A stretch of DNA of 63,190 nt, filler included, from Licmophora abbreviata (Eukaryota): assembly GCA_900291995.1 (NCBI GenBank). It is 9 parts of 9 records of this genome, joined end to end, with 100 filler letters (N's around TTAATTAATTAA, not from the genome) between each part and the next. Parts side by side here need not be neighbours in the genome. Positions count along the whole stretch, not along the records: positions 1 to 11,532 come from OLMU01001284.1; 8 more parts are not named here. The stretch is one strand, 5' to 3'. Made by a program: the position numbers and the translations under genes. Positions 2,012 through 4,958 of this stretch are shown in pieces; positions within the stretch are counted from its first letter, which is position 1; the number at the start of each line of letters is the position of its first letter. The notes under the pieces are model-generated. The model was not told the origin of the DNA, did no database searches, and saw nothing but the letters and a program-made list of their open reading frames with translations.

Positions 2012-3013
2012 TCAAAGCGGCTTCCAACCTTCATGCAATGCCACAATGCCTCCTGTCAGATTTGTATAGCGAACACTCTGGAATCCCGCATCCTTCATTC
2101 TCTGAACCAGTTCTGACTGATTCGAAAACTGGCGAATACTCTCGACGAGATACTGGTAGGATGGTCGGTCATTGGCCACTGCTTCTCCCATCGCTGGTAT
2201 CACATGAAACGAGTAGGTGTCGTATATGGCTCGCAAGAGCTCGTTAGGCACTTGAGAGAATTCGAGGCACATGTATCGACCCCCAGGCTTCAACACTCGA
2301 TAGGCTTCTTTCAATGCCAGATCGACATCGGTTACGTTGCGCAATCCAAAGGCAATAGTGTACATATCAAAACTGTTATCATTGAAACTGGACAAGGATT
2401 GCGCATTGCCTTCGGCAAAGCTCAATACTGTTGGTTTCTCCTCGTGATTCTTATCGAGCAGTGACGAATCGTACTTGGTTCGTGCACGGCGTTCTCCCAC
2501 CCGGAGCATTTCGGGGTTGATGTCGCATACCGTCACAGAAACAGAATTATGATTGATTCCGGTTGAATCCACTATACGAAAGGCGATATCTCCCGTGCCT
2601 CCGGCCACATCGAGAATGGCAAACGGCTCTACGCCTTCGGAACGCATCATCATGTTCGGCGCAATTACGCCGACCTTCGTTTGGTCCACAAAGTAGTCTT
2701 TCCATAGACGATGCAAGCCGCCGGACATGAAATCGTTCATTACATCGTAGTTTTCAGCGACATTCTCAAAAACTTCTCGGACACGGGATTCCTTTTCGTG
2801 AACCTGAACTTGCTGAAAGCCAAAGTGCGTAGTGGCGGCTGTGGAATCTTGAAGGGGAGGCGATGATGGCTCTGTATTTGCGGGACTGCTTGCTGTTGTG
2901 AATGAAGATCGAGGATTTACATGCTGGAAGAGCTGAGCAGTGGCTCCTGATCTGCTTTCAAGCGATCGACCAAGACGACGCAAGTCGAGGATGAGCCGTC
3001 GGTGCATTACCAT
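2012..3013 (-). CDS. COQ5: UbiE/COQ5 family C-methyltransferase (ubiquinone biosynthesis), mitochondrial
   Basis: THFGF, VFENVAENYDVMNDFMSGGLHRLWK, LDVAGGTGDIAF, YTIAFGLRNVT, YQYLVESIRQF. Arg/Ser-rich presequence from ATG 3013. Confidence 0.93.
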   Translation of the reverse strand: MVMHRRLILDLRRLGRSLESRSGATAQLFQHVNPRSSFTTASSPANTEPSSPPLQDSTAATTHFGFQQVQVHEKESRVREVFENVAENYDVMNDFMSGGLHRLWKDYFVDQTKVGVIAPNMMMRSEGVEPFAILDVAGGTGDIAFRIVDSTGINHNSVSVTVCDINPEMLRVGERRARTKYDSSLLDKNHEEKPTVLSFAEGNAQSLSSFNDNSFDMYTIAFGLRNVTDVDLALKEAYRVLKPGGRYMCLEFSQVPNELLRAIYDTYSFHVIPAMGEAVANDRPSYQYLVESIRQFSNQSELVQRMKDAGFQSVRYTNLTGGIVALHEGWKPL

Positions 3014-3310
3014 GGTGAGAGTGTTCGTATGATGATCAGCCGGCGCTTTGTGCTGCACCACGTACCATGTACAGACGAGTGGTCGATCTCGCATCCGGAT
3101 GGGGGACGGACCGTGAGTTTGAAGTTTGGAATCGCACGCACAACGCACATCGTCGGTCGCGGACTGCTGACATTAACCGCACAGAGATCGAGCAGCTAAC
3201 ACTCACCACGTTGTCTCCTGCAAAATCCTCGTCAAAACCGTCGTTTCACTGCAATCTGCAGAGATCTACACTCTTCTCGCGTCCACTTCTCCATATAGTC
3301 CAAAAGTCTG

Positions 3311-3904
3311 ATGCGTTCCTTTCTTCTCGTCGCCTCCTTGCTGGTGCTCTGTACTGCAAGAATACTTGCCTTTTCCTTGGTCATGATGGGATCGCGCCGC
3401 GGCAAGGGCAATCTCAAAAAGAGCCTGGATCCTGCCACGTCGGGAGACAAGCGGCTGTCGTCGTTCTCCTCCTCCAGCAACAGTCCAAGCGGCCAGCTCA
3501 ACAATGGAAGGGGCCAGGAAATTACGGGTGTGACGCTTCCGGCCGATGGCACTCTCAAGGGTTGGGAATTCGGGAACAGTGTTCGAATGGCATGTGCAAA
3601 CGTCAATGGCAGGTTCTATGCCCTGCAAGGAGCCTGTCCTCGATGCGGTTTTGATTTATGGAAGGGTGATCTCATAACGGACGACCCTGGCTTTGACGAT
3701 TTGCCGCTCGTCGCGTGCCCTACGTGTGCCACAACGTATGGATTGAGATCTGGTAAACATGGACCGCCTATAAAGCGGACCGGACTGTCGGGATTTGTGG
3801 GAGGGTTGGCCAAGTCGGCCACCAGCAGCGAGGCCAATCAGAATGCAAAGTCGTTCATTATTACGAGAGAAGAGGATGGACGCGTGTACTGCAAAGAACG
3901 ATGA
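3311..3904 (+). CDS. Plastid-targeted Rieske-ferredoxin-fold protein with non-canonical CxxC...CxxC ligand set
   Basis: Signal peptide + ILA-FSL. GRFYALQGACPRCGFDLWKG...VACPTCATTYGLRSGK aligns with the Rieske pattern GxxYAxxxxCxHxGxxLxxG...CPxHxxxFDLxTG; C-terminal EDGRVY strand. Confidence 0.7.
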   Translation: MRSFLLVASLLVLCTARILAFSLVMMGSRRGKGNLKKSLDPATSGDKRLSSFSSSSNSPSGQLNNGRGQEITGVTLPADGTLKGWEFGNSVRMACANVNGRFYALQGACPRCGFDLWKGDLITDDPGFDDLPLVACPTCATTYGLRSGKHGPPIKRTGLSGFVGGLAKSATSSEANQNAKSFIITREEDGRVYCKER

Positions 3905-4175: not shown

Positions 4176-4958
4176 TCAGATGGAGAATTCAATCAAATAC
4201 TCCTTACCCCACTGCACACGGGCCCATGCGCGCTCATAGAAGAACATCAGACCGGTCTTGAAGACGGCGTCAAATCCAGCAATCTTACTGGCAACGCTCA
4301 AATCCTTGGCGAAAAAGACGGCCATTGTGAGCGTGTTGCAAATTGCAAAAAGCCTCCAAATCAAAGCTTTGGCCAAGGAGCGACCGACATCATCGGCCCC
4401 AGCCTTACGTCCCGCCTGTGACTTGTTCATGAGTCGCTCTCCAATGAACATCGTAAACGCCTTGCTGAAGAAGTCAGACCCGACGATGCTCAGTGCTGTC
4501 GAGATGGAACCACTGAATCGAAGAGAGGTGGCAAAGGTGACACTTCCCGCAATGATACGCCACAGGAATGCCTTCACGGCCGATCGCATTGTAGTTTCGG
4601 AGAAATTCCCTCCCGGCGGGGCCTCAGTGACTTGGACGGCGGCCAGGTATTCCTGTTTCTTGCCTTGAAGCATCTCAAGGTTCTGTTCGTATTGCACAAG
4701 TCTCTCTCGAGCTTCTTCGCGGAGCTTATTGTACTTCTTCTCCTTCTTTTCGAACTCACGCAAGACGGCATCACTGTTGCCGTTAGTCATGGAGGGTATC
4801 GAAATGGAAGCCTGCAGCGGCCTTGGGTGGTAGTTCTGATGTGCATGAACCTTTTCCGATGCGGAGGAGAGGCGCGTTGCTGGGGACGCGAAGCCCATCA
4901 CGGTGGACGGCAGCAGAGCCACCAGCAAAACAGCAACGACGGATGACCTCGAGTACAT
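4176..4958 (-). CDS. Plastid-targeted membrane protein with two tandem DUF2061-like units
   Basis: Signal peptide + MG-FASP; coiled coil; ETTMRSAVKAFLWRII...ER and DDVGRSLAKALIWRLF...FFYERAW repeats typical of DUF2061. Confidence 0.7.
   Translation of the reverse strand: MYSRSSVVAVLLVALLPSTVMGFASPATRLSSASEKVHAHQNYHPRPLQASISIPSMTNGNSDAVLREFEKKEKKYNKLREEARERLVQYEQNLEMLQGKKQEYLAAVQVTEAPPGGNFSETTMRSAVKAFLWRIIAGSVTFATSLRFSGSISTALSIVGSDFFSKAFTMFIGERLMNKSQAGRKAGADDVGRSLAKALIWRLFAICNTLTMAVFFAKDLSVASKIAGFDAVFKTGLMFFYERAWARVQWGKEYLIEFSI

Follow-up and report, generated by a model that had tools for sequence, protein, structure and literature searches.

A predicted plastid protein of the diatom Licmophora abbreviata with two CxxC pairs at the ligand positions of a Rieske-type fold

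A gene of the diatom Licmophora abbreviata encodes a small protein whose mature domain is predicted with high confidence to adopt the Rieske-ferredoxin fold, with cysteines in place of both histidines that ligate a Rieske cluster. Because an engineered archaeal Rieske-type ferredoxin offers a close analogy, we consider it probable (at roughly 0.7) that the four cysteines would give this Rieske scaffold a mononuclear M(Cys)4 site. A cluster with two His and two Cys ligands is the defining feature of Rieske proteins; the kinship of their metal-binding loops with the knuckles of rubredoxins and zinc ribbons is supported by structural arguments and by one demonstration through protein engineering. 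The fold assignment is already known, in that databases label members of this family "Rieske domain-containing" or "nitrite reductase/ring-hydroxylating ferredoxin subunit"; these labels probably misstate the cofactor. In the titles and abstract starts covered by our literature search (subscription journals lay mostly outside its scope), we found no description of a natural Cys4 Rieske-fold protein, and no prior report of the ligand switch, of its conservation in two paralogues, or of its match to the engineered design.

The gene, its setting, and the predicted import of its product

The window, that is, the whole stretch of DNA analyzed, is 63,190 nucleotides long. In it, the open reading frame starts at the first ATG downstream of a stop, and the features of the gene and its product are as follows.

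3311..3904, + strand: complete single-exon open reading frame, 197 aa plus stop, with an ATG start and a TGA end (translation)
3311..3373, + strand: signal peptide (residues 1 to 20), then Phe21 directly after the predicted cleavage at ILA|F (hydrophobic N terminus in the translation)
3374..3499, + strand: basic, Ser-rich, predicted-disordered region, residues 22 to 63 (low pLDDT)
3395-3418, + strand: R-R-G-K-G-x-L-K motif, residues 29 to 36 (conserved across diatoms)
3500..3901, + strand: predicted Rieske-ferredoxin-fold domain, residues 64 to 197 (AlphaFold2 model, Foldseek, and VIA)
3635..3646, + strand: box I, C109-P-R-C112, where Rieske proteins have C-x-H (profile alignments)
3716..3727, + strand: box II, C136-P-T-C139, where Rieske proteins have C-x-x-H (profile alignments)
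3785..3820, + strand: conserved α-helix inserted after box II, residues 159 to 170 (DSSP helix 96 to 107 of the model)

The two CxxC pairs (CPRC and CPTC) lie 23 residues apart in the 197-aa protein, and the codons of their cysteines are at 3635-3637 (C109), 3644-3646 (C112), 3716-3718 (C136), and 3725-3727 (C139). Both boxes had been reported at these positions in an earlier note on this DNA, and a residue count in the translation confirmed them. A 231-base contig of a marine metagenome run matches positions 3630-3860 without a difference; it possibly has the same source as the window and so backs the reading of this segment only weakly.

The Rieske-like gene is divergent from a ubiE/COQ5 methyltransferase gene (2012..3148, - strand; E 9.3e-79). 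On the other side of the Rieske-like gene lies one for a DUF2061 membrane protein of 260 aa (4176..4958, - strand; E 1.3e-24). Since the GC content is 47.5 to 52.9 % in 3-kb steps along the 63-kb window, no tRNA genes are found within the window, and COQ5 is a neighbor, we conclude that the gene is nuclear and not plastid-genome DNA. In tblastn searches, no second copy of the protein or of its paralogue (families A and B, respectively, described below) was found within the window. Regarding the two neighbors, the ubiE/COQ5 open reading frame is listed with a GTG start, and translation probably begins at an ATG inside it. The DUF2061 protein starts with a signal peptide that ends in G|F and may be another plastid-targeted protein.

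The hydrophobic signal peptide of the Rieske-like protein ends in I-L-A and is followed by F21, whose conservation across 20 diatom sequences is 90 % or higher. An A|F junction (the ASAFAP motif) is a hallmark of the bipartite plastid-import signals of diatoms. The signal peptide and the A|F junction together predict that the protein is imported into the plastid; the earlier note had spoken of a plastid protein, which holds as a prediction of import, the gene itself being nuclear. The mature model has a pLDDT of 55 to 57 in its first 40 residues. Within the predicted-disordered region, the R-R-G-K-G-x-L-K motif aligns (hhalign) with R-G-R-G-S-x-L-K of paralogue family B, a conservation that is unusual for a disordered, transit-peptide-like stretch, and this segment may be a linear motif. 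In the portion of a Thalassiosira pseudonana plastid-fraction proteome supplement that we examined, the motifs of the Cys4 Rieske-fold family were absent.

Rieske kinship and the four ligand positions

The Rieske context proposed in the earlier note is invisible in the single sequence. The full 197-aa protein gave no Pfam Rieske match and only weak zinc-ribbon matches, and the mature domain fell below the cutoffs of both Pfam Rieske (PF00355; 13.3 bits against 20.3, E 0.078) and Rieske_2 (PF13806; 12.7 bits against 27). The best NCBIfam match was NirD (TIGR02378; E 0.0086), at 16.2 bits below its cutoff of 74.65, and HcaC-type ferredoxins were also among the NCBIfam matches, far below cutoff. 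Zn_ribbon_4 (PF13717) scored 14.8 bits against a cutoff of 30.3 and covers only residues 71 to 86 of the domain, box II included, while the rubredoxin family (PF00301) had no match to the domain at E <= 1. A phmmer search of the protein against the PDB likewise returned nothing significant (best E 0.59).

At the family level, the Rieske context stands. At E <= 1, Rieske_2 was matched by 35 of 55 aligned relatives (best E 6.6e-06) and Pfam Rieske by 33 of 55 (best E 4.2e-05), with weak Zn_ribbon_4 matches in 28 of 55 (best E 0.0035). The profile built from the 55 sequences retrieved BphA3 at E 0.0024 and then TodB, BphF, and CarAc (E 0.0024 to 0.056). In a language-model atlas, the nearest neighbors are two diatom clusters that are unnamed or called "putative Rieske" (0.95 and 0.91), followed by Rieske families.

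The predicted structure points in the same direction and bears out the fold presumed by the earlier note. The AlphaFold2 model of residues 64 to 197, built on the 55 sequences, has a pLDDT of 92.7 and a pTM of 0.85 and displays the Rieske β-sandwich with its two-loop metal-binding tip. Foldseek returned 16 PDB matches at E <= 0.001, all of them Rieske-type, with TodB (3dqy) at the top (E 7.7e-05). By VIA-align, the model superposes on 5bok with Z 13.6 and rmsd 2.4 over 102/102 residues, on 2qpz with Z 13.4 over 103/103 residues, and on 4nbc_F with Z 13.1. A wide structural search, independent of Foldseek and run over 48,161 PDB representative chains, gave 20 chains with Z >= 8, and all 20 are Rieske-type (ferredoxins, NirD-type subunits, oxygenase Rieske domains, and Rieske subunits); the first clearly unrelated fold appears at Z 3.7. 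The protein resembles rubredoxin neither by profile nor by fold; over its whole length, the domain matches Rieske ferredoxins.

HMM alignments to TodB and BphA3 place C109 on the first Rieske Cys ligand and P110 on the middle residue of the box; the first Rieske His corresponds to R111, with C112 one residue later, and the second Cys and second His correspond to C136 and C139. Judged from these alignments, box I has changed from CxH to CxxC, the His having been lost and a Cys acquired at the next position, and box II has changed from CxxH to CxxC through direct replacement of His by Cys. Profile alignments thus put the CxxC pairs on the Rieske ligand positions, as the earlier note had read them. 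Neither of the Rieske signatures, C-x-H in box I or C-x-x-H in box II, is present in the protein, which instead has the rubredoxin-type arrangement of two CxxC pairs, equivalent to four potential thiolate ligands.

The surroundings of the site are also distinctive. Around both boxes, residues F114, D115, L116, K118, G119, T141, and T142 are 85 to 96 % conserved, and the inter-box loop is 7 to 8 residues longer than in TodB/BphA3-type ferredoxins. In and around the helix that follows box II, conservation is 87 % or more at G158, V163, L166, A167, A170, and T171. Two further cysteines, C95 (3593-3595) and C194 (3890-3892), are conserved in diatoms; across the relatives, both are present in 103, neither in 30, and the remaining 39 are mixed, which means that the two usually occur together or not at all. 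These two residues could form a disulfide or simply a buried pair.

Conservation, a paralogous family, and relatives in the red lineage

At E <= 0.001, a word-indexed search recovered 258 relatives, and identity to the query ranges from 55 to 78 % among the best 120. Diatom homologues, complete transcripts among them, align from M1 to the C terminus at 55 to 78 % identity. An exhaustive HMMER search of 1.84 billion representatives yielded 131 sequences at E <= 0.001; 68 of these have E values of 1e-10 or lower, and 16 have values of 1e-30 or lower. The diatom sources include Seminavis, Cylindrotheca, Epithemia, Thalassionema, Thalassiothrix, and Odontella, among others, and Chrysoparadoxa, Heterosigma, Phaeothamnion, Florenciella, and Pelagophyceae sp. 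CCMP2097 represent other ochrophytes. All named relatives are ochrophyte algae, most matches coming from unnamed contigs.

The alignment of these relatives comprises 256 of the 258 stored sequences, two long multi-repeat proteins having been dropped, and 159 of the 256 cover the site (at least 40 of positions 100 to 145). Cysteines occupy positions 109, 112, 136, and 139 in 156 of these 159 relatives. The three exceptions are fragments of 85 and 116 aa and a 275-aa model whose sequence departs from the others within the domain, and a His is found at a ligand position in none of the 159. The four cysteines are moreover invariant both in 20 diatom sequences and in 55 diverse sequences. From this conservation across ochrophyte orthologues, the four cysteines can be taken as neither chance nor sequencing error, in line with the view of the earlier note that an error was unlikely. 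At position 111, which corresponds to the first Rieske His, Arg is found in 168 and Lys in 7 of the 186 aligned relatives that have both box I cysteines.

A second ochrophyte Cys4 family, here called family B, has members from Pseudo-nitzschia, Nitzschia, Cylindrotheca, Tetraparma, Heterosigma, and a source whose cut-off name reads "Chatto". It is homologous to the family of the L. abbreviata protein (family A), with an hhalign probability of 99.2 and an E value of 6.2e-20 over 152 columns. The CxxC...CxxC arrangement is present in 65 of 89 family B matches, mostly as CPQC, CPSC, or CPKC followed by CDFC or CDLC; the other 24, inspected by eye, are models that break off or enter unrelated sequence before or inside the domain. 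Family B is further characterized by a longer β-hairpin before box I. Since Cylindrotheca fusiformis carries both families, we regard A and B as paralogues.

The red lineage seems to contain relatives in other ligand states. The chain 8jng_A, a protein from Porphyridium purpureum that carries the name "methanesulfonate monooxygenase ferredoxin subunit", was modelled into the in situ PBS-PSII-PSI-LHC map (8JNG, linked to EMD-33597). Among structures compared with our model, it has the longest overlap (117 residues, Z 12.0, versus about 102 for the bacterial ferredoxins), and it is also the top PDB match of the family B profile, a weak one (E 0.23); its sequence similarity is low (16 % identity). 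In the family B profile alignment, 8jng_A keeps the canonical ligands C-P-H and C-A-Q-H, and the alignment with it continues through the post-box-II helix. In the reviews and related papers searched, no role for 8jng_A in the photosystem megacomplex was found and the word "Rieske" did not occur; the ModelAngelo preprint reports six unidentified chains, with no indication of which of them is the 8jng_A protein.

A Rieske-like protein of T. pseudonana, Thaps3a_29842, was detected in the plastid fraction (supplement of PMC6683858). By eye, it resembles 8jng_A around the helix and has none of the ligands, with C-P-P-V at box I and no CxxH. These comparisons by eye hint, weakly, at a helix-bearing Rieske-fold clade of red-lineage plastids, whose members seem to exist in three states: His-ligated, ligand-less, and Cys4.

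The putative metal site and its known counterparts

The closest precedent for the proposed site is a variant of ARF, the Rieske-type ferredoxin of Sulfolobus solfataricus. According to the review PMC2946596, the triple mutant H44I/K45C/H64C binds a single Fe/Zn, and a figure legend there calls its site a "Rd-like, mononuclear (Fe/Zn) center". It has the same ligand pattern as the L. abbreviata protein and turns out to be the engineered archaeal equivalent that the earlier note had mentioned. We propose that the small, soluble, nuclear-encoded, and predicted plastid-targeted protein has descended from a Rieske-type ferredoxin, and that its two tip loops, which normally place two Cys and two His around a [2Fe-2S] cluster, have become two CPxC knuckles. 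By analogy with the triple mutant, four thiolates at CxxC spacing would then wrap a single metal ion tetrahedrally, the arrangement known from rubredoxins and zinc ribbons, and a binuclear cluster is not expected. Against this reading stands the position of the protein below every Pfam and NCBIfam cutoff. The conserved tip and the post-box-II helix might dock onto a stromal or thylakoid partner, a proposal whose one basis is the modelling of the red-algal relative in the photosystem megacomplex map.

A different cofactor on the same fold would be an all-Cys [2Fe-2S] cluster, making the protein a low-potential ferredoxin. The scaffold evolved for such a cluster, and PMC2946596 describes two variants that speak for it: ARF H64C, with three Cys and one His, still assembled a low-potential [2Fe-2S] cluster, and a C42A variant of a rubredoxin can assemble a [2Fe-2S] cluster too, so that ligand spacing does not fix nuclearity absolutely. 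In the same source, however, cluster assembly failed in ARF H44C and was largely impaired in the double variant H44C/H64C, and the CxxC-spaced triple mutant, whose pattern is the one seen here, gave a mononuclear site. Moreover, the box I Cys is offset by one residue from the His that it replaces, which would produce knuckle geometry. We therefore hold the all-Cys cluster to be improbable.

The cysteines might also bind no metal at all, the CPxC pairs serving as dithiol/disulfide switches regulated by the plastid thioredoxin system. Conservation of all four cysteines would suit such a role, and CPxC does resemble the active sites of thiol oxidoreductases; yet the predicted fold is Rieske and not thioredoxin-like, the cysteines sit at the metal-ligand positions of two facing loops in a classic Cys4 metal-site arrangement, and the local matches come from zinc-ribbon profiles. 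A metal-free switch thus appears decidedly improbable to us. It is highly improbable that the resemblance to Rieske proteins is convergent, with a zinc ribbon embedded in an unrelated β-sandwich: this would account for a single sequence that yields only weak zinc-ribbon matches in Pfam and nothing significant by phmmer in the PDB, but not for the family-level E values of Rieske and Rieske_2, a profile alignment that spans both boxes and the C-terminal strands, a Z of 13 across the whole ferredoxin, or the presence of the same extra helix in 8jng_A, a relative with canonical CPH...CAQH ligands.

If the site is the mononuclear M(Cys)4 center that we favor, the identity of the metal can be argued in two ways. 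Cys4 sites made of CPxC pairs usually hold zinc, and one relative appears to function without any ligands, hinting at a non-redox docking role of the clade; both points favor Zn, in a structural or redox-switch site that would stiffen the docking surface, and we consider this assignment possible, at less than even odds. Fe, which would make the protein a rubredoxin-like one-electron carrier, is favored by the descent of the protein from a redox protein, by the location of the site at the exposed electron-transfer tip, and by the strong conservation of the residues around both boxes; we regard it as a tentative and somewhat doubtful assignment.

A broader proposal would see in these proteins a new class of ochrophyte plastid electron carrier, with a rubredoxin-type Fe(Cys)4 site on a Rieske fold, derived from a His-ligated ancestor like 8jng_A and represented by two paralogues with distinct partners. 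We rate this as rather unlikely, but its consequences would be considerable: the iron cost would be halved and the potential shifted, and the family would be the natural counterpart of the 2005 design (the ARF triple mutant, reportedly by Iwasaki et al. 2005), a living Rieske-to-rubredoxin interconversion. More generally, a conserved natural family with the exact engineered ligand set would show that evolution made the same switch, and it would offer a native system for the bioinorganic question of what decides between mononuclear and binuclear assembly. The hosts, diatoms and other ochrophytes, are major and often iron-limited primary producers, and the family is predicted to reside in their plastids.

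Several known systems share part of this combination of features. The ferredoxins of bacterial ring-hydroxylating oxygenases (TodB 3dqy, BphA3 2e4p, BphF 1fqt, CarAc 1vck, NDO 2qpz, and 5bok) match the model over their full length (Z 12.4 to 13.6, rmsd 2.1 to 2.6, 100 to 103 residues, 19 to 25 % identity), but they have CxH...CxxH ligands and a [2Fe-2S] cluster and lack both the post-box-II helix and the N-terminal targeting region. The small subunits of the NirD type (Rieske_2; 3c0d, 4aiv, and 2jo6) have the Rieske fold without the Rieske cluster, at Z 10.1 to 12.1 with the model. To our knowledge, NirD has no conserved Cys4 site, whereas the algal protein keeps Cys at all four ligand positions. 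In rubredoxins and zinc ribbons, a single Fe or Zn is coordinated by the four thiolates of two CxxC knuckles (CPxC in many cases), as proposed here for the algal protein; they are domains of about 50 aa, and their overall fold differs from that of the algal Rieske-fold domain. The protein 8jng_A shares with the L. abbreviata protein the Rieske fold with a post-box-II helix, its ligands including His where the latter has Cys4.

The ARF triple mutant, as described in PMC2946596, belongs to the same scaffold class as the algal protein, and both show the same exchanges: a non-ligand residue at the first His position, a Cys immediately after it, and a Cys at the second His position. The mutant is man-made, archaeal, and cytosolic, while the algal protein is natural and bears plastid-targeting signals; the non-ligand residue is Arg in the algal protein and Ile in the mutant. 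Compared with ARF, the algal protein also has an inter-box loop longer by 7 to 8 residues and the extra conserved helix after box II.
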